In this document: positions 1,234-11,143 of the stretch, piece after piece | Layout: every line of letters starts with the position of its first letter | How positions within the stretch are numbered: the first letter of the stretch is position 1 | NCBI GenBank assembly: GCA_031459535.1 | Contig: JAVKIJ010000090.1 | Location: forward strand, 1-11,254 | Length of the DNA stretch: 11,254 nt | DNA from: Candidatus Fervidifonticultor quintus | GTDB taxonomy: Bacteria; Sysuimicrobiota; Sysuimicrobiia; Sysuimicrobiales; Humicultoraceae | Direction of reading: 5' to 3' | The notes under the pieces: model-generated | The model's database searches: none | Told to the model about the DNA's origin: nothing | The model's input: the letters and a program-made list of their open reading frames with translations, nothing else | Program-made: the position numbers and the translations under genes

Positions 1234-2154
1234 TCACAGCTTCAACCGGGGATCGAGCGCATCACGAAGACCGTCTCCGAGGAAGTTGTATGCCAGGACC
1301 GTGGTCAGGATCAGCAGCCCTGGGTAGACGGCCAGGTTGGGTGCCGACCAGATGTAGATCTGCGCGTTCTGCAGCATGTTGCCCCACGACGGCAGCGGGG
1401 GGCGAATCCCCAGTCCCAGGTAGGAAATGGCCGACTCAGTTAGAATGGCAAACGCCACATTCAGCGTCGCCGCCACGATGATGGACGGGACGACCTGCGG
1501 CAGGATGTGACGGAACATGATGCGCCCGTCGCGGGCGCCGATGCTGCGCGCCGCGTCGACAAACTCGGTCACGCGCCACCGCAGGAACTCACCGCGTACG
1601 ACGCGCGCCACGGGCATCCAGGCCGTCAGGCCGATGACGATGGTGACCGTGACCGGGCCTCCGCCGAAGACAGCGAGGGCGGCCAGGATCACGAACAGGG
1701 TCGGCAGCGCCATCATGGCGTCGGTCAACCGCATCAGCGTCACGTCCTGCCAGCGACCGAAATAGCCCGCCAGGGCGCCGACCGCCACACCCACCGAGAC
1801 AGAGATGGCCATGGCCACGAAGCCCACCGCCAGCGACACTCGGGCGCCGAGCACCAGGCGAGCCAGGACGTCCCGGCCGATCTCGTCGGTGCCGAGCGGG
1901 TGCTGGACGCTGCTCCCCGCGAGACGCGCGATAGGATCCGCGGCGAACGGGTCGAGGGGCAGGAGCCACGGACCCAACATGGCGATCAGGTGGACCGCCG
2001 CCAAGAAAGCCAGGGCCGCGAGCGCCGGCCCATTGCGCCGCAGACGGCGCGCCGCGAGCCGCCACAGGGTCCGCGGCGGCGCCGGGCCGACGAGCACCAC
2101 TGTCGGGGCCGGGACCCCGAGGTCGACGCTTGCGGGCGGCCGCGCGCTAGCCAT
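1234..2154 (-). CDS. Peptide/nickel ABC transporter permease, OppC/DppC type (306 aa)
   Basis: Contains HPLGTDEIGRDVLARLVLGARVSL, the EAA loop EFVDAARSIGA...RHILP, ESAISYLGLG..PP.PSWG and C-terminal NFLGDGLRDALDP. Start moved to ATG 2154 (MASARPP), which overlaps the upstream permease by 8 nt. The ORF-track extension to 2286 lies inside that permease. Confidence 0.95.
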   Translation of the reverse strand: MASARPPASVDLGVPAPTVVLVGPAPPRTLWRLAARRLRRNGPALAALAFLAAVHLIAMLGPWLLPLDPFAADPIARLAGSSVQHPLGTDEIGRDVLARLVLGARVSLAVGFVAMAISVSVGVAVGALAGYFGRWQDVTLMRLTDAMMALPTLFVILAALAVFGGGPVTVTIVIGLTAWMPVARVVRGEFLRWRVTEFVDAARSIGARDGRIMFRHILPQVVPSIIVAATLNVAFAILTESAISYLGLGIRPPLPSWGNMLQNAQIYIWSAPNLAVYPGLLILTTVLAYNFLGDGLRDALDPRLKL

Positions 2155-3094
2155 AGGTGATGCGGGGATCGAGCCAGCCGTATGCCAGATCCACGAGCAG
2201 GTTTGAGAGAATGACCACCACGGCCACCACCACCGTAATCGCCATGACCATCGGGTAATCACGGCCGATGGTGGACGAGACGGCAAGCTGTCCCATCCCC
2301 GGCCAGCCGAAGATCGTCTCGGTGATCACGGCCCCGCCGGCGAGGCGGGGCACCAGCACCCCCAGCACCGTCACCACGGGGATCAGGGCGTTGCGGATCG
2401 CGTGGCGGGACAGCACCACGTGATCTGGCAGCCCCTTGGCCCGCGCGGTGCGCACGTAGTCCTGCCCGATTTCCTCGATCAGCGCCGACCGCATGAAGCG
2501 CACCAGGTTGGGCAGCGTCGCGGTGGCCAGCACCAGTGCCGGCAGCACCAGGTGCGTGAGGCGATCGGCCAGGGAGAACGGTGCGCCGGGCGTGGCCAGG
2601 CCTGAAGCCGGGAGCCAGTGCAGGTGCACTGTGAAGACCAGGATCAGGAGGATGGCGAACCAGAATGCGGGGATCGAGACGCCGATGAACGAGAGGAACG
2701 TCACCACGTGGTCGGCCAGCGAGTAGCGCCGCGTCGCGGAGATGATGCCGGCGGGGATGCCGATCAGGATGGACAGGGCCAGGGCGCTGCCGCCGAGCAG
2801 GAGCGTGTTGGGCAGGCGTTCCAGGATGACCTCGTTGACCTGGCGGCGGTCACCGAACGAGCGGCCGAAGTCCGCCCGCAGCGCCGCCCCGATCCACTTG
2901 AGGTACCGCACGGGGAGGGGTTGGTCCAGGCCCAACTGACGGGCAAGCGCCTCCCGCTGGTCCGGCGTTGACTCCATGGTCATCATGATCGCCGGCCCGC
3001 CCGGCGCCATGGAGACCATGGCGAAGGTGAGCGTGGACACCACCAGGAGCACGACCAGGGCCTGGAAGGCGCGTTCGAGCAGGTAGCGTCCCAC
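2147..3094 (-). CDS. Peptide/nickel ABC transporter permease, OppB/DppB type (315 aa)
   Basis: Contains LGLDQPLPVRY...DFGRSF, SIPAFW, the EAA loop DYVRTARAKGL...HAIRNA, ETIFGWPGMG and NLLVDLAYGWLDPRI. GTG start with upstream GGAG. Confidence 0.96.
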   Translation of the reverse strand: MGRYLLERAFQALVVLLVVSTLTFAMVSMAPGGPAIMMTMESTPDQREALARQLGLDQPLPVRYLKWIGAALRADFGRSFGDRRQVNEVILERLPNTLLLGGSALALSILIGIPAGIISATRRYSLADHVVTFLSFIGVSIPAFWFAILLILVFTVHLHWLPASGLATPGAPFSLADRLTHLVLPALVLATATLPNLVRFMRSALIEEIGQDYVRTARAKGLPDHVVLSRHAIRNALIPVVTVLGVLVPRLAGGAVITETIFGWPGMGQLAVSSTIGRDYPMVMAITVVVAVVVILSNLLVDLAYGWLDPRITYG

Positions 3095-3180: not shown

Positions 3181-4761
3181 CTACTCCAGCTTCCACTCGT
3201 TCGCCCACTGGAAGGCCGCTCGCAGGTGAATCGGCGGGATACCTTTCAGCCGCTTGTTCCACGCCCGGATCTCGTTGGGCCACCAGAGCTGGAGGTAGGG
3301 GAGATCCTCTGCCAGCAGTTCCTGGAGTCTCTTATAGATGCGCTCGCGCTCGGCGATGGTGGTGGCCCTGCGCCCGGCTTCCATCAGCGCGTCTGCCTCC
3401 CTGTTGTTGTACATGGGAAGGTTGAAGCCCCGCTCCGCGGCGCTGCTGTGGGCATAGTTGAAGAAGTCCGGGTCCTCGGGCATGATCCACCAGCCCAGCA
3501 GCGCGTCGTAGCGCCGCGCCAGCATGCCCTGGATGAACACGTTGAACTCGCGGCCTTCCAGCACGGTCTCGATTCCCACGGCCCGCAGGTATTGTTGCAC
3601 CAGGGCCGCCAGGGGCTCGAAGTACTGGACGGTCGGGTACAGGAGGGTGAAACGGAACCGCTGTCCTCCCTTGGTCAGCACGCCGTCCGCGCCGGGCTGC
3701 CAGCCGGCCTCGGCGAGCAGTTGCCGGGCCTTGGCGCGGTCGAACTCGTACGTCTTCACGTTGGGGTTGAAGAAGTTCTTGAGCACCGGCGTGAGCGGGG
3801 AGCTCGCCGGGGTGGCGAAGCCCTCGAGGAACCCTCGAATCATTGCCGGGCGGTCCATGGCGTGCATCATGGCCTGGCGGACACGGCGGTCCTGGAACAG
3901 CGGGTTGCGGTGATTGGGCGCCAGGTAGTAGAAGTTGTTCTGAGGCAGAGTGTTGATCTCCACGTTCGGCCGGCCCTGGACGGCCTTGACCAGCGCCGGG
4001 TTATCGATGAAGAGGATGTTGAGATCGCCGGCGAGGAACTGGGCGATCTGCGCGTTGACGTCAGGCAGCACCTTGTAGGTGATCGTGTCGATGGACGGCG
4101 CCCCGCCGAAGTAGGCCGGATTCTTCTCCAACGTCACATACGAGCCCGACACGTACTCCTTCATCTTGTAGGCGCCTGTGCCGATGGGCATGCGCTTGTT
4201 GAACGCGTCGTGGGTCCAGTAGTTCTCCGGCGCCACGCCGGCGAAGGCGTGCCGGGGAATGATGCCGGCGTTGACGCCGACGACTGCCACGAGGCTGGCC
4301 TGGGGCGCGGACATGAGAAACTGGATCGTGTACGGATCGACGACCCGGGTTTCCTTGATATTGCTGAAGGCAGCCCGCCCGGTGGCACCGAGGCGGGGGT
4401 TGAGGATGATGTCATAGGTGAACTTGACGTCGTCGGCGGTGAAGTCGCGGCCGTCGTGCCACTTCACTCCCCGGCGCAGCTTGAAGGTCCAGGTGAGGCC
4501 GTCGGCCGAGACATCCCAGGACTCGGCCAGGTCGCCGACCCATCGCGACTCTTTGCCCCACTTGGTGAGGCCATTGAAGAGGACCCTGGTCACGAAAATC
4601 GACTCGACGAAGTGCCGGGGGTGCCAGGGATTGAACGTCGGGTCGCCGACGATCGGGAAGACCACGCCGCCGCCCGGCGCAGGTCCGCCCGCGGCGGGCG
4701 GGACGACAGCCACGGCCAGGAGCAACCCGACCACAGCCAGTGGGAAGAGACGAGCACGCAT
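3181..4761 (-). CDS. ABC transporter substrate-binding protein, family 5 (OppA/DppA/NikA-like), 526 aa
   Basis: Sec-type signal peptide MRARLFPLAVVGLLLAVAVVPPAAG with no lipobox Cys. Family-5 signature GDLAESWDVSADGLTWTFKLRRGVKWHDGRDFTADDVKFT, plus PIGTGAY, FQDRRVRQAM and KARQLLAEAGW. Confidence 0.96.
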   Translation of the reverse strand: MRARLFPLAVVGLLLAVAVVPPAAGGPAPGGGVVFPIVGDPTFNPWHPRHFVESIFVTRVLFNGLTKWGKESRWVGDLAESWDVSADGLTWTFKLRRGVKWHDGRDFTADDVKFTYDIILNPRLGATGRAAFSNIKETRVVDPYTIQFLMSAPQASLVAVVGVNAGIIPRHAFAGVAPENYWTHDAFNKRMPIGTGAYKMKEYVSGSYVTLEKNPAYFGGAPSIDTITYKVLPDVNAQIAQFLAGDLNILFIDNPALVKAVQGRPNVEINTLPQNNFYYLAPNHRNPLFQDRRVRQAMMHAMDRPAMIRGFLEGFATPASSPLTPVLKNFFNPNVKTYEFDRAKARQLLAEAGWQPGADGVLTKGGQRFRFTLLYPTVQYFEPLAALVQQYLRAVGIETVLEGREFNVFIQGMLARRYDALLGWWIMPEDPDFFNYAHSSAAERGFNLPMYNNREADALMEAGRRATTIAERERIYKRLQELLAEDLPYLQLWWPNEIRAWNKRLKGIPPIHLRAAFQWANEWKLE

Positions 4762-4765
4762 CAGC

Positions 4766-5275
4766 CTACCCCCTTTGCTTTGGGCGCCTTCGCGGCACCG
4801 CGCCGTTGCCCGTCGGCTCCGGCAGCCACGTGTAGCTCTGCTTGTGGATCCGCAGGATCATGGACGTGTCGGTGCGAATGATGCCCGGCACGCCGGCCAG
4901 ACGGTCGACCAGGAAGTCGTGCAGGCTGTCGGTATCGGGCAGCACCACCTCGATGATGATGTCGAACGTGCCGGTGGTGACGGCGATGTACCGGACCTCC
5001 GGCATCTCCATCAGCCTGGCCAGCGCCCGCTTCACCTTGCTGCGCTGGACGTTCAGGCCCGTGATCGCGGAGGCGTGCATACCGACCTTGATGAGATCGG
5101 CCACGGCCACGACGCGGATCACCCTATCGGCCAGCAGCCGCGACAGGCGGTTGCGCACCGTGCCCTCGGTGACGCCCAGGGCCCTGGCCAGGGCGCTGTA
5201 GCTGGTCCGGCCGTCTCGCTGGAGGGCGCAGATAATGCCCTGGTCGAGGGCGTCGAGCTGGTTGGCGTGCCGCAT
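4766..5275 (-). CDS. Lrp/AsnC-family transcriptional regulator (169 aa)
   Basis: N-terminal HTH LDALDQGIICALQRDGRTSYSALARALGVTEGTVRNRLSRL and C-terminal RAM domain with VTTGTFDIIIEV and GIIRTDTSMIL. GGGAG RBS. Ends 4 nt before the binding-protein start. Confidence 0.95.
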   Translation of the reverse strand: MRHANQLDALDQGIICALQRDGRTSYSALARALGVTEGTVRNRLSRLLADRVIRVVAVADLIKVGMHASAITGLNVQRSKVKRALARLMEMPEVRYIAVTTGTFDIIIEVVLPDTDSLHDFLVDRLAGVPGIIRTDTSMILRIHKQSYTWLPEPTGNGAVPRRRPKQRG

Positions 5276-5310
5276 GCACTCCCGCCCGGGTTGCTATCTT
5301 GGTCCGTGGC

Positions 5311-5354
5311 TCTGATTTCCGAAGCAGAACTCAGGCGCCGCTACGAATATCGAA
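5311..5354. promoter_or_regulatory. Two candidate Lrp/AsnC binding boxes (5311-5323 and 5342-5354), 31 bp apart
   Basis: TCTG-ATTTC-CGAA and TACG-AATAT-CGAA are 13-bp elements with AT-rich cores, upstream of the Lrp gene and about 3 helical turns apart. Confidence 0.35.
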
Positions 5355-5390
5355 AGACATCGCCGGCCTGTTAGCTGGCAGCCTATCATG

Positions 5391-5428
5391 AACGGGGAAG
5401 GGGGGTCAACTCCCCCAGTTCCCCCGTT
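5391..5428 (-). terminator. Imperfect hairpin spanning the LacI stop codon (possible terminator or 3' stabiliser)
   Basis: The minus-strand RNA AACGGGGGAA-CU-GGGGGAG-UUGA-CCCCCC-UUCCCCGUU can form about 15 bp with bulges and the UGA stop in the loop. There is no clear poly-U tail. Confidence 0.4.
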
Positions 5429-6455
5429 GCGATGGGGCTGGTCGAGCCCTGGGGAGCGAGGCGCCGCAGGATTCGCGCACCACCAGCCGGGGCTGAAAGA
5501 CCACGGTCTGGGGGCGCCCGGTACGCCGTGTCTGTAAGCGCTCCAGCATCAGTCGGCCGGCAGCGGCGCCGAGCTCATAGCCCGGCTGCGCCACCGCGGT
5601 GAGCGGGGGCGTCAGGATCGGTGCCCAGTCCATATCGTCGAAGCCCACCACTGCCATCTCTTCGGGAATCCGGACGCCGGCCTCCTTGAGGCCCAGCAGC
5701 GCGCCGATCGTCATCAGGTTGTTGGCCACGAAGATCGCGGTCGGCCTGACCCGCAGGCGCAGGAACCGGCCGACCAGCTCGTACCCGCTCTGCTCTTTGA
5801 ACGTGCCCTCGAGGACCAGCTCGTCGTCGAGGGCGAGCCCGGCGTCTTGCAGGGTGGCCCGATACGCTTCGAGACGCTCGCGCCCCGTATACAGGCGCCG
5901 TGGGCCGCTGATGATGCCGATGCGCCGGTGCCCCAGCCGGATGAGGTGCTCGATGGCGGCGCGCACGCCGGCCCGGTTGTCGATGAGCACGGCGTCGGCG
6001 GCCAGCCGCGAGAGGCGCCGGTCGATCTGCACAATGGGAGTGCCGCCGGCCAGTATGCTCCGCAGTGCCGATGCCGACCCACCGCTCGGCGAGATGATCA
6101 GGCCGTCAACGCGCTTCTGGCGAACCGTGCGGAGGTACATCCCTTCCTTGTCCGGATCTTCATCGGCGTTGCACAGCACGATGGCGTATCCCTCCGCCAG
6201 GACCACGTCCTCAATGCCGCGCACGACGGAGGCGAAGAAGGGGTTGGCGTTGTCCGAGACAATGACGGCCAGCGTGTGGGTCCGGCCCTTGATCATGCTC
6301 CGGGCGATCGCGTTGGGGTGGTAGTCCAGCATCCGGGCGGCGCGCAGGATGCGGGCGCGGGTGGCGTCACTCACGTACCCGTACTCGCCCAGCGCCCTGG
6401 CCGCCGTGGCGACGGATACCCCGGCGCGCCGCGCGACATCGCGAATGGTGGCCAT
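5406..6455 (-). CDS. LacI/GalR-family transcriptional repressor (349 aa)
   Basis: HTH ATIRDVARRAGVSVATAARAL and hinge YHPNAIARSM. Sugar-binding domain motifs NPFFASVVRGIE, HLIRLGHRRIG, GVRIPEEMAVVGFDD, PPLTAVAQP and LVVRESCG. GAGGAG RBS. Confidence 0.97.
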   Translation of the reverse strand: MATIRDVARRAGVSVATAARALGEYGYVSDATRARILRAARMLDYHPNAIARSMIKGRTHTLAVIVSDNANPFFASVVRGIEDVVLAEGYAIVLCNADEDPDKEGMYLRTVRQKRVDGLIISPSGGSASALRSILAGGTPIVQIDRRLSRLAADAVLIDNRAGVRAAIEHLIRLGHRRIGIISGPRRLYTGRERLEAYRATLQDAGLALDDELVLEGTFKEQSGYELVGRFLRLRVRPTAIFVANNLMTIGALLGLKEAGVRIPEEMAVVGFDDMDWAPILTPPLTAVAQPGYELGAAAGRLMLERLQTRRTGRPQTVVFQPRLVVRESCGASLPRARPAPSQRGNWGS

Positions 6456-6456
6456 C

Positions 6457-6470
6457 TGGTAACGTTCTCC
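6457..6470. promoter_or_regulatory. LacI-type operator O1 (TGGTAACGTTCTCC) overlapping the lacI RBS
   Basis: Pseudo-palindrome centred on AACGTT with the central CG typical of LacI/GalR operators. A near-identical copy lies at 6591-6604. Confidence 0.7.
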
Positions 6471-6491
6471 TCACTTCCACCCGGGTGATAG

Positions 6492-6516
6492 GGGTTCCTC
6501 CGGGTCTCGGGCAGGT
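6492..6516. repeat. Copy 2 of bipartite motif GGGTTCCTCC-[GGGTCT]-CGGGCAGGT
   Basis: Same two blocks as 622..640, separated by a 6-nt insertion. Confidence 0.4.
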
Positions 6517-6548
6517 CTAGCCCGGGGCCGGGTGGGGGGTTGGATTGA

Positions 6549-6577
6549 GCAGGAGTTCTGGCGTGGGGGAAGCGAAT
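6549..6577 (+). promoter_or_regulatory. Candidate sigma-H-like promoter (GCAGGAGTT...AGCGAAT) of the sugar operon
   Basis: AGGA at 6551-6554 and GAAT at 6574-6577 are 19 nt apart, slightly longer than the Bacillus sigH spacing. Operator O2 lies just downstream, where a repressor site would be expected. Confidence 0.35.
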
Positions 6578-6590
6578 TCTCCCAGGGACC

Positions 6591-6604
6591 TGATAACGTT
6601 CTCT
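6591..6604. promoter_or_regulatory. LacI-type operator O2 (TGATAACGTTCTCT)
   Basis: Pseudo-palindrome 23 nt upstream of the isomerase ATG, 12/14 identical to O1. Confidence 0.72.
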
Positions 6605-6627
6605 CACTCTTGCCACGGAGGCTGCCC

Positions 6628-8043
6628 ATGCGCGCGCCGAAGATCGGCATCCTCACGTTCTCCGACGGCAGGCCGCACGTGCACCGCGAGCTGCTGTCGC
6701 TGACCCGCCAGTTCCAGGACCGCCTGGCCGCGCGGCTGCAGGCCATCGGGTGGGAGGTCGCCACCGGGCGTGAGATCATCTGGAACACCGACCAGGCCAC
6801 GAGCGAAGGCCGCTACCTCGCGGCCCAGGGCGTGGAGGCCACGATCTTCAACTATGCCATCTGGGCCTGGCCGCACTACTCCGCCATTGCCGCGCAGTTC
6901 GTGCCCGGGCCGATCCTGATGTTCAGCAACGTCAACCCGCAGTACCCCGGGCTGGTGGCGATGCTGGCCGCAGCCGGGAGCCTGGACCAGGTCGGGGCCT
7001 TCCACGGCCGTGTCTCGGGCGACATTGACGACGAGAAGGTCTTCGAGCGGGTGCTGCAGTTCCTGCGGCCGGCGGTGGCGAAGAACCGGCTGCGCGGCGA
7101 AGTCTACGGCGTCATCGGCGGCCGGTCCATGGGGATGTATACGGCGGTGCCGGCGCTGGACCACTGGCAGCGCCACTTCGGCATCGACATCGAGCACATC
7201 GACCAGTTCGAGATCGTGCGCCGAGCCCAGGCGGTCCCGGACAGCCGGGCGGATGCCGGCATCGCCTGGCTGCAGCGCCACGGGGCGACGATTCACTACG
7301 ACGGCGCCAAGCTGACCCCGCAGCTGTTGCGGCGCCAGATCAAGGCCTACCACGCGGTTCGCGAGCTCATCGACGAGTGGCGCCTGGACTTCTGCGGGAT
7401 CAAGGGGCAGCCCGAGATGACCAACCACTTCGCCACCATGGATGTGGCCGAGGCGTTCCTGAACGACCCGTACGACTGGGAGGGCCCACACGATCCGGTG
7501 GTCTGCGCCACCGAGGCGGACAGCGACGGTGCGCTGACCATGGAGGTCTTCAAGCACATTGCGCGCACCCCTGTGCTCTTCGCCGACGTGCGGCACTACG
7601 ACGCCGAAGAGAACATGTGGGACTTGGTGAACTCCGGCGCGCATGCCACATACTTTGCGGGTAAGTCGTTCGACCCCGCGGTCAACCTCAAGCACGTGCA
7701 CCTCTACCCGGCGATCATCTACTTCCCGGCCGGTGGCGCCTCCGTGATGCACATTGCGGCGCCTGGCGAGGTGACCCTGGCGCGGCTGGCCCGGCGCAAC
7801 GGCCGGTACTGGATGGCCATCGTGCCCGGCGAGTTCCTGCAGTTCTCCCCGGAGAAGGCGGCCGCCAAGGCCAGGGCCACCACACCCGAATGGCCGCACG
7901 CGTTCGCTAGGTTCAACGTGTCGGCCGAGGAGTTCCTCGGCGAGTACGACTCCAACCACATCCACGGCGTCTACGGCAACTACGTGGAGGACCTGGTGTG
8001 GTTCTGTAAGATGACCGGGATCGAGCCCCGGGTCTTCGCGTGA
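6628..8043 (+). CDS. fucI: L-fucose/D-arabinose isomerase family protein, short form (471 aa)
   Basis: KGQPEMTNHFATMDVAEAFLNDPYDWEGPHDPVVCATEAD matches the FucI catalytic segment (Glu in AEAF, Asp in ATExD). Also VLFADVR, YFPAGGAS, GEVTLARL, TTPEWPHAF and metal-ligand His in SNHIH. Start moved to ATG 6628, with GGAGG at 6617-6621. Confidence 0.88.
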   Translation: MRAPKIGILTFSDGRPHVHRELLSLTRQFQDRLAARLQAIGWEVATGREIIWNTDQATSEGRYLAAQGVEATIFNYAIWAWPHYSAIAAQFVPGPILMFSNVNPQYPGLVAMLAAAGSLDQVGAFHGRVSGDIDDEKVFERVLQFLRPAVAKNRLRGEVYGVIGGRSMGMYTAVPALDHWQRHFGIDIEHIDQFEIVRRAQAVPDSRADAGIAWLQRHGATIHYDGAKLTPQLLRRQIKAYHAVRELIDEWRLDFCGIKGQPEMTNHFATMDVAEAFLNDPYDWEGPHDPVVCATEADSDGALTMEVFKHIARTPVLFADVRHYDAEENMWDLVNSGAHATYFAGKSFDPAVNLKHVHLYPAIIYFPAGGASVMHIAAPGEVTLARLARRNGRYWMAIVPGEFLQFSPEKAAAKARATTPEWPHAFARFNVSAEEFLGEYDSNHIHGVYGNYVEDLVWFCKMTGIEPRVFA

Positions 8044-8050
8044 GGACCTC

Positions 8051-9730
8051 GTGGCGACGCGCTACACGATCGGGGTAGACTTCGGCACCGAGTCGGTGCG
8101 GGCGGTGCTGGTCGACGTGGCCGACGGCCGCATCGCGACCACGGCGACCTATACCTATCCCCACGGTGTCATTGATCGCGCCTTGCCTGAGACCGAAGAA
8201 CGTCTGCCGCCCGACTGGGCGCTGCAGCACCCCGGCGACTGGATCGAGGCGCTGCAGACTCTACTGCGCTCCATGGCCGCTACAGCGCCGCAGCAGGCCA
8301 TCATCGGGATCGGCGTGGACTTCACGTCGTGCACCGTGATGCCCACCACGGCCGAGGGCGCGCCGCTGTGCCTGCTGCCCGAGTTCGCCAAGAACCCCAA
8401 CGCCTGGCCCAAGTTGTGGAAGCACCACGCGGCGCAGCCGTACGCGGACCGGATCAACGCCACCGCAGGCCGGCCAGGAGGAGAGTTCCTCCAGTGGTAC
8501 GGAGGGCGCACCTCGTCGGAGTGGTCCTGGGCCAAGGCCTGGCAGGTGCTGGCCGAGGCGCCGCAGGTCGCCACAACCGCCGCCCGCTGGATCGAGGGCG
8601 GCGACTGGATCGTCTGGGAGCTGCTGGGGGCGGAGGTACGCAGCGCCTGTCAGGCCGGGTACAAGGCGCACTGGCAGAAGGATGCGGGCTTTCCTCCCGC
8701 CTCTTACTGGGCGTCGCTGCACCCGGGGCTTGAGGCGTTCCTCGACAAGCTCGGGCCGACACCCCAGCCGGTCGGCGCCCGTGCCGGCGGTCTGTGCGAC
8801 GCCTGGGCGCGACGTACCGGGCTGCGGCCCGGGACCGCCGTGGCCGTGGCGGTGATTGACGCCCATGCCGGTGTGCCTGCGGTCGGCGTCTGCCGGCCCG
8901 GCCAGCTCGTCGCCATCATGGGCACGTCCACCTGCCACCTGCTCGTCGACCCGCACCGACGTGCCGTCCGGGGCATCTCGGGCGTCGTCGAAGATGGCAT
9001 ACTCCCGGGGCTCTTCGGCTACGAGGCCGGACAGGCCTCGGTGGGCGACATCTTTCAGTGGTTCGTGCGGAACGCGGTCCCGGCCGGGTACGCCTCGGGT
9101 GCCGGCGAAGGCGAGGCCGCCGTCTACGACCGGCTCGCAGCCGAGGCCGCGCGGCTGGCCCCGGGTGAGAACGGCCTGCTGGCCCTCGACTGGTGGAACG
9201 GCTGCCGCACGCCGCTGGTGGACGCCGAGTTGTCCGGGCTCATCGTGGGACTCACGGTGACGACCCAGCCCCACGAGATCTACCGCGCGCTCCTGGAGGC
9301 TGCGGCCTTCGGTACCCGGCGCGTCATCGAGACCTTTGAAGACGGCGGGGTGCCCGTGCACGAGGTCCACGCCTGCGGGGGGCTCGCCGAGCGCAATCCG
9401 CTGCTGCTGCAACTGACCGCCGACATTATCGGCCGCGAGGTGTTGGCTGCGGGAGTCCAGCATGCCTCTGCGGTGGGGTCGGCCATCTATGCCGCGGCCG
9501 CGGCGGGTGGGTCCGCGGGCGGCTACGACACCATGGACGAGGCCGTACGGCGCATGGGCGGCAAGGAGCGCGTGACGTATCGGCCTCGCCCCGCGGCCCA
9601 GCGCGTTTACGAAGGGCTCTATGGAGATTACCTGGCACTAGCCCGCTACTTTGGTGAAGGCGGGACCGGCATCATGAAGGAGCTGCGGGCACGGCGCAGG
9701 CACTACGCCGCCGGGGATACGTCGCCGTGA
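8051..9730 (+). CDS. araB: Ribulokinase (FGGY family, AraB/L-ribulokinase-like), 559 aa
   Basis: Contains IGVDFGTESVRA, ALQHPGDW, IGVDFTSCT, KLWKHHAAQ, YGGRTSSEW, AGYKA, IDAH, MGTSTCH, YEAGQ and LDWWNGCRTP. GTG start with a GAGGA RBS overlapping the isomerase TGA. Confidence 0.92.
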   Translation: MATRYTIGVDFGTESVRAVLVDVADGRIATTATYTYPHGVIDRALPETEERLPPDWALQHPGDWIEALQTLLRSMAATAPQQAIIGIGVDFTSCTVMPTTAEGAPLCLLPEFAKNPNAWPKLWKHHAAQPYADRINATAGRPGGEFLQWYGGRTSSEWSWAKAWQVLAEAPQVATTAARWIEGGDWIVWELLGAEVRSACQAGYKAHWQKDAGFPPASYWASLHPGLEAFLDKLGPTPQPVGARAGGLCDAWARRTGLRPGTAVAVAVIDAHAGVPAVGVCRPGQLVAIMGTSTCHLLVDPHRRAVRGISGVVEDGILPGLFGYEAGQASVGDIFQWFVRNAVPAGYASGAGEGEAAVYDRLAAEAARLAPGENGLLALDWWNGCRTPLVDAELSGLIVGLTVTTQPHEIYRALLEAAAFGTRRVIETFEDGGVPVHEVHACGGLAERNPLLLQLTADIIGREVLAAGVQHASAVGSAIYAAAAAGGSAGGYDTMDEAVRRMGGKERVTYRPRPAAQRVYEGLYGDYLALARYFGEGGTGIMKELRARRRHYAAGDTSP

Positions 9731-9832
9731 CCGGCGGTGTGGGGACGGTGATACGATCAGGCGGAGGGATGCGTTAGGGGGTGAGAAGCGCATTTTGCGG
9801 ATGCCTGGCAGAGTCCGATGGAGGTGAGGACA

Positions 9833-11143
9833 ATGGTAGGAATGGGAGCGACGTCGCGGGTGACGAGGCGCACCTTCATCAAGGGCGCTGCGGCCGCGGC
9901 GGCGAGCCTGGTGGTATCAGACCCGTGGTCGCGCACATTCGCCCAGGAACGGGTGATCACCCTCGACTACTACACGCTGTTCCACAGCGGTGATGCGGCG
10001 GCCATGGAACGCATCGTGCGCGCCTTCAACGCCGAGCACAAGACGGTGCGGCTCAACCTGCTGCAGGGGCAGTGGGCCGAGTACTACGCACAGCTCTTTG
10101 CCGCAGTCGGCGCGGGCAACGCGCCCCACATCGGCATCTGCCACAGCAGCCGCATCATGGATGTCTGGCGGGCGCTGACGCCGCTCGAAGAGTCCCGGGC
10201 GGGCAACCTGCTGGAGCTCGCCGACCTCAAGATGCGTGACTACACCAAGAACGTGTGGGACTCGGGCGTCTACCAGGGCAAGCGCTATCTTGTGCCGCTG
10301 GATTCCCACATGTGGGGCTTCTGGTACAACAAGGACCTGTTCCGGCAGGCGGGTCTCGACCCCGACAAGCCGCCGGAGACCCGGGACGAGTTCGAGCGCG
10401 CCGCCGACGCCATCAAGTCCCGGACGGGCAAGTTCGCGTTCCACCCCGCCGAGGACGCGCTGCCGCGTAAGATCCGGCGCGCCTGGGAGATCTTCTTCTG
10501 GGGCCAGGGCGGTGAACTGCTCACCCGGGACGGCCGGCGGGCCGCGTTCAACGATGAGCGCGGGCTGCGCGCCCTGGACTATCTTGTCGGCGTGATCCGC
10601 CGCGGCTGGAACCAGCCAGGCACCGACGGCTTCAAGCAGTTCGCCGCGGGCCAGCTCGGCATGCTCCTGGCGGGCAACTGGTACTTCCCGACCGCCAAGG
10701 AGAGCGGCGTCAACTTCGGCTTCCACTATGTGCCGAAGTTCTTCGACAAGCCAGTGACCTGGGGCGACAGCCACAACCTGGTGATCCCCCGGCAGCGGCC
10801 CGAGCGGACGAGCAACGAGATGCTCGTGGCTGCCATCAACGCCATCAAGTGGATCAACCGGCACTCCGACCTGTGGGGCATCTACGGCGGCCACATCCCG
10901 GCCTATCTGGCCGCGCAGCGAAGCGCCGACCTGCTCAAGTCCGATACCTGGCAGATCGCGCTGCGCAAGTTCGCCGATATGGCCAACCAGGGATGGGTCC
11001 ACTATCCACTCATCCACGAGAAGGCCCCGCAGGTCCACTCGGCCATCGAGCCGTACATCCAAGAGGCCTACAACGGCCGCCTCGCCCCCCGGGACGCGCT
11101 GGCCCGGGCGGAGGCGGAAGTCAACCGCGTGCTCGGGAGCTAG
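9833..11143 (+). CDS. Carbohydrate ABC transporter substrate-binding protein (family 1/CUT1) with Tat signal peptide, 436 aa
   Basis: Twin-arginine motif TRRTFIK, followed by an Ala-rich h-region and TFA-Q. Family-1 SBP motifs FNAEH, AGNAPHI, YQGKRYLVP, WYNKDLFRQAGLDPDKPPET, FAAGQLGM..AGNW and PRDALARAE. Start moved to ATG 9833 because GGAGGTGA lies at 9820-9827. Confidence 0.93.
   Translation: MVGMGATSRVTRRTFIKGAAAAAASLVVSDPWSRTFAQERVITLDYYTLFHSGDAAAMERIVRAFNAEHKTVRLNLLQGQWAEYYAQLFAAVGAGNAPHIGICHSSRIMDVWRALTPLEESRAGNLLELADLKMRDYTKNVWDSGVYQGKRYLVPLDSHMWGFWYNKDLFRQAGLDPDKPPETRDEFERAADAIKSRTGKFAFHPAEDALPRKIRRAWEIFFWGQGGELLTRDGRRAAFNDERGLRALDYLVGVIRRGWNQPGTDGFKQFAAGQLGMLLAGNWYFPTAKESGVNFGFHYVPKFFDKPVTWGDSHNLVIPRQRPERTSNEMLVAAINAIKWINRHSDLWGIYGGHIPAYLAAQRSADLLKSDTWQIALRKFADMANQGWVHYPLIHEKAPQVHSAIEPYIQEAYNGRLAPRDALARAEAEVNRVLGS

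Follow-up and report, generated by a model that had tools for sequence, protein, structure and literature searches.

A candidate D-arabinose operon in Candidatus Fervidifonticultor quintus and its possible feeding by 3-deoxy-D-manno-octulosonate

We describe a small sugar operon of Candidatus Fervidifonticultor quintus (phylum Sysuimicrobiota; assembly GCA_031459535.1) that encodes an unusually short relative of L-fucose isomerase, and we propose a D-arabinose route for it. The window, that is, the whole stretch of DNA analyzed here, is the entire 11,254-bp contig JAVKIJ010000090.1 (C129), part of a 3.1-Mb assembly of 138 contigs that is 88.85% complete. It contains one plus-strand operon of three recognized genes. 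The first encodes a FucI-family aldose-ketose isomerase of 471 aa, the proposed D-arabinose isomerase (6628-8043, plus strand; Pfam Fucose_iso_N1/N2/C), the second a pentulokinase of the AraB family, for which phosphorylation of D-ribulose at C5 is proposed (8051-9730, plus strand; NCBIfam ribulokinase models), and the third a CUT1 solute-binding protein of the ATP-binding cassette (ABC) type with a twin-arginine translocation signal, the proposed glycoside importer component (9818-11143, plus strand; SBP_bac_1/SBP_bac_8). The kinase gene starts 7 bp past the isomerase stop, and the operon diverges from the gene of a LacI-family repressor (5406-6455, minus strand; Pfam LacI, Peripla_BP_1 and Peripla_BP_3). 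A preliminary description of this DNA had noted linked fucI-like and araB-like genes followed by a sugar-binding protein, and the open reading frames are as it claimed, including the isomerase start at 6628, which is preferred over a longer and less likely frame from a GTG at 6532 because relatives begin at the ATG. The same description held that fucK, fucA, fucU, araA and araD are absent from the window; no homologue of AraA, AraD, FucA or FucK was seen there, and for FucU, which was not searched by family, that statement is left as it was.

A direct pattern search of the window found GRTAACGTTCTC twice, each time inside the 172-bp spacer between the LacI gene and the isomerase gene (chance expectation 0.02; none of 200 shuffles reaches two), and we regard these, GGTAACGTTCTC at 6458-6469 and GATAACGTTCTC at 6592-6603, 36 bp before the isomerase start, as candidate LacI operators to which no strand is assigned. 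An AACGTT-centred site, NNNAACGTTNNN, also found by direct pattern search, is present in 21 of 38 phylum loci in the 260 bp that precede the isomerase, mostly at -27 to -71, and is a perfect palindrome in three of them (L019, L038 and L039). An inverted-repeat search of the promoter region with default logic found nothing. The repressor itself scores below every NCBIfam equivalog cut-off, its best match being RbsR at 252 of 531 bits; of the 40 phylum loci whose neighbours were clustered, 15 have a LacI gene in this place, and such a gene is present in 31 of the 80 metagenome loci described below.

The isomerase belongs to the FucI fold family and stands well apart from FucI itself. All three Pfam domains are matched above the gathering score (E-values of 9e-28 for Fucose_iso_N1, 6e-15 for N2 and 3e-38 for C), the ATEADS stretch pairs with ATENDS of solved FucI and FADVRHY with FADVRTY, and E296, D320, H444 and H446 are invariant among 18 members of the family; we take the corresponding Glu, Asp and His of FucI to be its catalytic and metal-binding residues. 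With 471 aa, as against the 587-591 positions of the FucI profiles, the protein falls far below the FucI equivalog cut-offs (91.4 of 775 bits for NF008220 and 80.7 of 850 bits for TIGR01089), and it matches solved FucI and D-arabinose isomerase 3a9r at E-values of about 1e-20 to 1e-19. The subfamily is large, comprising 2838 proteins at E ≤ 1e-20 among the candidates scored, spans several phyla, and is known in public databases by the generic name “L-fucose/L-arabinose isomerase family protein”. More distant homologues, 36-40% identical, in records of Clostridium, Planctomycetota and Spirochaetaceae (L026, L027, L028 and L032) adjoin a split transketolase, made of a Transketolase_N protein and a Transket_pyr plus Transketolase_C protein, which recalls the sulfoquinovose transketolase route.

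The partner kinase is close to L-ribulokinase, with 659.4 bits against NCBIfam NF003154 (cut-off 428), 651.4 bits against TIGR01234 (cut-off 583) and 602 bits against the solved ribulokinase 3qdk over residues 3-549. Across the isomerase family the partner kinases comprise at least three FGGY subtypes, one AraB-type and above the cut-off, one lying between ribulokinase and the 5C pentulose-kinase model, and one xylulokinase-like and below the cut-off (302-352 of 380 bits). All are closest to pentulose kinases and none to FucK, the models of which they match far below cut-off. AraB is able to phosphorylate D-ribulose in vivo, as shown in a study of enterohaemorrhagic Escherichia coli (EHEC) and E. 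coli (PMC12307932). We also observed a single in-frame TGA within the kinase match in three genomes of one genus, g12 (G027:C39, G028:C68 and G029:C1), a kinase match with a TAG in G007, and a kinase split over two frames in G070.

The presence of an epimerase or aldolase partner was examined through 94 genomes of the phylum (the tallies include G016, and the Aldolase_II and lyase scans also G024, both marked unpublished). The isomerase is found in 47 of the 94 and the kinase in 44 of those 47, directly adjacent in all but one of the 44; in the three genomes where no kinase was found (G012, G019 and G088) the isomerase sits at a contig end on the kinase side. To our knowledge, every known L-ribulose-5-phosphate 4-epimerase has the class II aldolase fold. 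In twenty of the 47 genomes with the isomerase, a search for Aldolase_II gave nothing at E < 1e-20; completeness is 95% or more in ten of the twenty (G001, G013, G026, G030, G033, G038, G039, G059, G066 and G083). The preliminary description had named an AraD or class II aldolase in the same operon as a finding that would speak against a D-arabinose route; across 128 loci (40 of the phylum and 88 others), no recurrent neighbour of the isomerase is of this kind. This distribution argues against an L-arabinose or fucose-type route. AraA_N gave no match in this genome at its 88.85% completeness. Two Aldolase_II matches elsewhere in it (C111 and C104) were considered as AraD or FucA and set aside, as they lie in unrelated contexts and far below the AraD and FucA cut-offs. 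The one on C111 (L004), at 7516-8130, is the only strong class II aldolase-fold gene of the genome and is below all cut-offs; within 4129-9035 its neighbours are genes for a zinc dehydrogenase, a LacI regulator, a creatininase/IolN-like hydrolase and a protein of the UPF0261 type, in what appears to be a separate sugar or acid-sugar locus.

The binding protein of the window matches solved proteins only distantly (7bvt, 5ci5 and 4qrz, E 3e-23 to 6e-13), and its orthologues in L008, L012, L024 and other loci are followed by two permease genes and then by a BNR_2 gene. The continuation cannot be read from the window itself, where the contig ends 111 bp past the binding-protein gene and no permease start is recognizable in those 111 bp. 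A second contig of the same genome, C32, opens on the minus strand with a permease gene in truncated form; its product shares 76% identity with the second of the two L024 operon permeases, and the next gene encodes a 321-aa BNR_2 protein that is 68% identical to the product of the gene behind that L024 permease. By this synteny, as distinct from an assembled join, C32 probably continues the operon with the permease and BNR_2. The AlphaFold model of the BNR_2 protein (pLDDT 93.7) is a six-bladed propeller, and the 50 matches listed by Foldseek against the PDB are GH33 sialidases or close relatives (TM 0.69-0.81), except for one designed protein and one of unknown function; likewise, among the best 60 of 87 profile matches to the PDB, only the same two entries are neither sialidases nor fusion constructs of sialidases. 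The predicted structure is thus that of a sialidase-like fold. The arginine triad and the nucleophile of sialidases could be mapped onto it in part, R200 and a YSY-type tyrosine region being aligned, and no N-terminal RIP motif was seen. BNR_2 orthologues occur in 19 of the 94 phylum genomes, 18 of which have the isomerase, while the other, G028, carries a fragment of the kinase on the same contig, and they often abut the gene of a lyase.

This lyase, a member of the dihydrodipicolinate synthase (DHDPS) family, was with BNR_2 one of two further recurrent neighbours in the 40 phylum loci. A profile built from six linked DHDPS proteins separates a subtype at 320 bits or above from proteins at about 297 bits and lower in all 94 genomes, and the subtype is present in 20 of them, 19 with the isomerase and one (G044) with the kinase only; in 12 genomes it lies within 12 kb of the isomerase. 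The linked proteins retain the GTTGE and YNIP motifs and the Schiff-base lysine. DapA is marked by an Arg five residues past the Tyr, and all six linked lyases lack it (YNIPQxT or YNIPLFT). Against the NanA models they stay under the cut-offs (118-143 of 281 bits), and in all cases except L008 they are below the dapA cut-off as well; judged by these sequence features, the linked lyases are not DapA. The importers behind the isomerase-kinase pair are varied, including CUT1 ABC systems, whose binding proteins are of two kinds, CUT2 monosaccharide-type ABC systems, tripartite ATP-independent periplasmic (TRAP) transporters (DctPQM) and tripartite tricarboxylate transporters (TTT; TctCBA). In L005-L007, L011 and other loci the kinase gene is succeeded by transporters of TRAP or TTT type, and the TRAP binding protein adjoining the pair in L007 has 4p47 as its nearest solved relative, followed by SiaP sialic-acid binders (E 5e-47 and weaker). 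L042, L048, L050 and L051 have, divergently oriented to the isomerase, a small gene of the transaldolase/FSA family and a PfkB kinase gene; L050, L051 and L053 contain a CUT2 monosaccharide-type ABC system together with genes for a short-chain dehydrogenase and an aldo-keto reductase. We count the transaldolase and CUT2 genes, as likely pentose-phosphate neighbours, for a D-arabinose module.

Beyond the phylum, the same isomerase family was examined in 80 metagenome loci (isomerases 55-85% identical, G+C content 0.39-0.72), in which neighbours were clustered unlabelled and then annotated. An FGGY kinase is present in 39 of the 80. A DHDPS-family gene is present in 28; ten of these genes lie directly downstream of the isomerase, seven having a start predicted 8 nt within the isomerase reading frame. 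BNR_2 was found in 11, eight times directly upstream of the isomerase, and nine of these loci also hold DHDPS, the other two being cut off on that side. The gene order LacI-DHDPS-SBP-permease-permease-BNR_2-isomerase(-kinase), where SBP is the solute-binding protein, recurs in L091, L092, L098, L104, L112 and L115, and in L090 without BNR_2; loci sharing it range in G+C content from 0.46 to 0.63. In eight further cases the linked gene is a DUF2961 protein, that is, a member of glycoside hydrolase family 172 (GH172), four of them within 300 bp of the isomerase. DHDPS and GH172 never occur in one locus, and in L095 and L134 GH172 takes the BNR_2 slot, past the permeases and before the isomerase. 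GH172 enzymes are exo-alpha-D-arabinofuranosidases that release D-arabinose, as described in two reports (PMC10115798; PMC10509167).

In a tree of 121 isomerases, GH172-linked and lyase-linked proteins interleave inside the same well-supported clades, the GH172 label requiring eight changes for eight rows, and the isomerase of L095 (GH172) is 89% identical to that of L098 (DHDPS and BNR_2) and 91% identical to that of L099. Because the identity reaches 91%, isomerases of the two contexts should share one substrate. We count this pattern, in which the lyase with BNR_2 and GH172 appear as two alternative feeder modules for one isomerase, in favour of D-arabinose. The survey of neighbourhoods for GH172 that the preliminary description had proposed thus gave a direct link to this isomerase family in 8 of the 80 loci. 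In 8 of the 80 metagenome loci (L079, L080, L082, L087, L097, L120, L129 and L130) the isomerase is linked to an AP_endonuc_2 protein, a xylose-isomerase-like TIM barrel, encoded directly upstream in some; these isomerases fall largely in two clades of the tree and may represent a third setting, in which the sugar is a different one.

We suggest that the LacI-repressed operon is probably a dedicated module for D-arabinose, converting it via D-ribulose to D-ribulose-5-phosphate, with every substrate inferred from context. The sequences show the identity of the genes, the structure of the operon, and which genes co-occur or are adjacent. In the scheme that we propose, the ABC system, with its binding protein in the window and its permease on C32, would import a glycoside, from which the cytoplasmic sialidase-fold BNR_2 hydrolase encoded on C32 would free an ulosonic acid, most likely Kdo (3-deoxy-D-manno-octulosonate). 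A NanA-like lyase of the DHDPS family, present in sister species and not found in this assembly, would cleave Kdo to pyruvate and D-arabinose; D-arabinose is probably made inside the cell from the imported glycoside. The short FucI-family isomerase would then convert D-arabinose to D-ribulose, the AraB-type kinase would phosphorylate this at C5, and the resulting D-ribulose-5-phosphate would join the pentose phosphate pathway, with neither an epimerase nor an aldolase needed, the whole being repressed by LacI. The route from D-arabinose to D-ribulose-5-phosphate was already put forward in the preliminary description; the genomic context supports it, and every comparative test that was run fits.

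The role of Kdo as the feeder is a tentative proposal, also drawn from context, that we rate at somewhat below even odds. We favour Kdo because, of the natural substrates that we can name, no other would suit a FucI-like isomerase, a pyruvate lyase and a sialidase-like hydrolase all at once; among the natural 3-deoxy-ulosonic acids known to us, it alone gives a pentose of the FucI-type configuration. A Kdo aldolase activity (EC 4.1.2.23) is cited to work of 1966 in PMC12199768. Our literature search found no gene assigned to this step, returning only Kdo hydrolases of lipopolysaccharide (LPS) remodelling, a Kdo hydrolase of rhamnogalacturonan II (RG-II), and citations of the 1966 enzyme. The cell's own synthesis was considered as a source of Kdo and rejected, as the genome has no KdtA match and only marginal CTP_transf_3 matches; since there is no sign of such synthesis, the sequence weakly suggests that any Kdo would be scavenged. 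The preliminary description had looked instead to actinobacterial D-arabinan, and here we depart from it. No GH172 or GH183 was found in this genome or its phylum, and the linked sialidase-fold hydrolase, NanA-like lyase and sialic-acid-type importers point to Kdo. For this genome the search comprised PF11175 and PF13810 (DUF2961 for GH172 and DUF4185 for GH183), with no match and control genomes also without signal, and tblastn with ten DUF2961 proteins, which found nothing; GH116 was not searched.

Several observations weigh against these proposals. The kinase is above the L-ribulokinase equivalog cut-offs, which at face value means L-arabinose. The isomerase is remote from characterized FucI, and FucI specificity cannot be carried over to it, because the match to FucI is only at about 1e-20 and a relative of similar size, the sulfoquinovose isomerase SftI, has a model (NF048012) that matches it at 39.9 bits. 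In G072 (L020, 1902-2693, minus strand) a class II aldolase gene is convergent with the isomerase, the only such case in the 47 genomes; its product fits none of the curated families, being below the cut-offs even of its best models, an L-ribulose-5-phosphate epimerase subfamily (121 of 251 bits) and ribulose-1-phosphate aldolase (116 of 300 bits). As genomes of one phylum are kin, the tallies drawn from them overstate independence. An invariant Gln of BNR_2 (Q184) lines up with the sialidase Glu in the profile alignment, and the chemistry of this hydrolase may differ from that of sialidases. GH172 also includes fructofuranosidases (PMC10509167). The linked lyase subtype was not found in this genome (89% complete), where the best match is 46% identical and DapA-like; its other DHDPS paralogues (C24, C66 and C1) were rejected as the lyase on account of their unrelated neighbourhoods, and an HpcH/HpaI-type aldolase as a substitute proved uninformative, with matches in five of five lyase-less genomes tried and none on the isomerase contig. 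Two nearly complete genomes, G092 (96%) and G083 (98%), have the isomerase, kinase, ABC system and BNR_2 but no linked lyase, so that either the lyase is dispensable or BNR_2 directly yields the isomerase substrate. Lastly, 22 of the 47 isomerase genomes lack both the lyase and BNR_2.

Some of these points would suit an isomerase acting on another aldose set free by the lyase or hydrolase, for example D-mannose from 2-keto-3-deoxynononic acid (Kdn), or D-lyxose or D-xylose giving D-xylulose, with the FGGY kinase acting on the matching ketose. We consider this unlikely. The short FucI-like enzymes have indeed diverged widely, as the sulfoquinovose isomerase match and the distant homologues beside a split transketolase indicate, and many partner kinases are nearest xylulokinase, if below its cut-off; the kinase of the window, in contrast, is a ribulokinase by curated cut-off. 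The sialidase fold serves Kdn too, yet we know of no natural ulosonic acid that gives D-xylose or D-lyxose on aldol cleavage, nor of an FGGY fructokinase. The fructofuranosidases within GH172 might also be invoked, but if GH172 were releasing fructose the adjacent isomerase would be needless, and GH172 abuts the isomerase in four loci.

It is rather improbable that the operon serves L-arabinose, with the FucI-like enzyme replacing AraA, AraB acting on L-ribulose, an epimerase encoded elsewhere or belonging to another family, and an L-arabino-oligosaccharide as the import. The kinase scores, the public name of the isomerase family and the lack of a classical AraA in this genome can all be read in that way, and CUT1 importers are typical of plant oligosaccharides, the arabino-oligosaccharide binder 6rjy weakly matching the binding protein (E 9e-10). 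The phylum survey stands against it, however, both in the 20 isomerase genomes that lack a strong protein of the class II aldolase/epimerase fold and in the 128 loci through which no such gene recurs. The linked glycosidases, moreover, are GH172, D-arabinofuranose-specific in print, and a sialidase fold, rather than members of L-arabinofuranosidase families, and neither carboxylate-type TRAP and TTT importers nor a pyruvate lyase would have a role in an L-arabinose operon. Very unlikely, finally, is a general salvage pair for D-ribulose or pentoses that adjoins transporters, BNR_2 and lyase merely through shared LacI regulation of unrelated sugar routes: the variety of adjoining transporters, the 22 isomerase genomes without lyase and BNR_2 and the 42 of 80 metagenome loci (many of them short) without DHDPS, BNR_2 or GH172 agree with it, but not the lyase start inside the isomerase frame in seven loci, the BNR_2 gene abutting the isomerase in eight, the gene order conserved across a wide range of G+C content, or the occurrence of the phylum lyase subtype and BNR_2 only where isomerase or kinase is present.

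Upstream of the LacI gene the window holds a minus-strand block assigned by family matches, composed of two peptide/nickel-type ABC permeases (1234-2286 and 2147-3094), a peptide/nickel-type ABC binding protein of the SBP_bac_5 family (3181-4761) and an AsnC regulator (4766-5275). This block is syntenic in L006, L007 and L021, and it has no evident tie to the sugar operon.

We return to the D-arabinose module and its possible feeding by Kdo. D-arabinose is a rare sugar, and little has been defined of the bacterial genes dedicated to using it. What is new here is a dedicated and widespread short isomerase subfamily for a putative D-arabinose route, coupled to a nan-like module that points to Kdo. 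Were all of this to hold together, the window would be the downstream half of a pathway for Kdo catabolism, the first to be genetically defined, in which a cytoplasmic GH33-like hydrolase frees Kdo from imported LPS or pectin glycosides, new DHDPS subfamilies supply the long-orphan Kdo aldolase (EC 4.1.2.23), and the widespread 470-aa FucI-like family provides a dedicated D-arabinose isomerase that, with a pentulokinase, also serves GH172-based D-arabinan use in other lineages; taken as a whole, we rate this joint reading as somewhat less likely than not. If it is true, a large and generically named isomerase subfamily gains a function, one module is fed by two very different sources of D-arabinose, mycobacterial-type arabinan and Kdo, and the Kdo aldolase activity of 1966 becomes testable with named candidates. 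Because Kdo is present in the LPS of most Gram-negative bacteria and in pectin RG-II, a route for its recycling would matter to carbon turnover in hot springs, soils and guts.

The proposed route is best judged beside the systems that it resembles. With the L-fucose pathway it shares an isomerase carrying all three FucI Pfam domains and the aligned Glu, Asp and His stretches, and it differs in its ribulokinase- or xylulokinase-like partner kinases and in the many genomes without a strong Aldolase_II protein. With araBAD it shares an AraB-family kinase above the curated cut-off beside an aldose isomerase and a sugar ABC importer; unlike araBAD, it has an isomerase of the FucI fold family, and the genome offers neither an AraA_N match nor an AraD-grade one. 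In enterobacteria (E. coli B, Klebsiella) D-arabinose is converted to D-ribulose-5-phosphate via FucI and a D-ribulokinase, which is established chemistry. That route borrows enzymes of L-fucose, ribitol or L-arabinose metabolism, whereas here a distinct 471-aa isomerase subfamily and its own kinase lie in a dedicated operon; the two reactions and the end product would be the same as in the enterobacterial route and as with EHEC AraB (PMC12307932).

Closer in organization are the D-arabinan loci. In that of Microbacterium arabinogalactanolyticum a putative isomerase and kinase were proposed to take D-arabinose to D-ribulose-5-phosphate (Shimokawa et al., 2023; PMC10509167), and this locus and PUL42 of Dysgonomonas gadei (Al-Jourani et al., 2023; PMC10115798) combine an ABC importer with exo-glycosidases of the cytoplasm and with an isomerase and a kinase, both putative. 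Our operon likewise has isomerase, kinase and a CUT1 ABC importer component together. It differs in that the genome has no GH172 or GH183 match, its own linked glycosidase being of the sialidase fold, and in that its relatives add a pyruvate lyase and acid-sugar importers. These last features are those of nan clusters, with which the relatives share a sialidase-fold hydrolase, a lyase of the DHDPS/NanA family, a TRAP binding protein near SiaP and one repressor. In this genome the likeness lies in the BNR_2 protein of C32, outside the window and with its catalytic residues partly mapped; the window alone holds only the isomerase, kinase and binding protein. No NanK, NanE or ManNAc epimerase is among the annotated recurrent neighbour clusters, a family search not having been made. 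In place of a ManNAc kinase and epimerase, the step after the lyase would be carried out by a FucI-like isomerase and a pentulokinase, which, by analogy with the nan pathway, fits a C8 acid (Kdo giving D-arabinose) rather than a C9 sialic acid.

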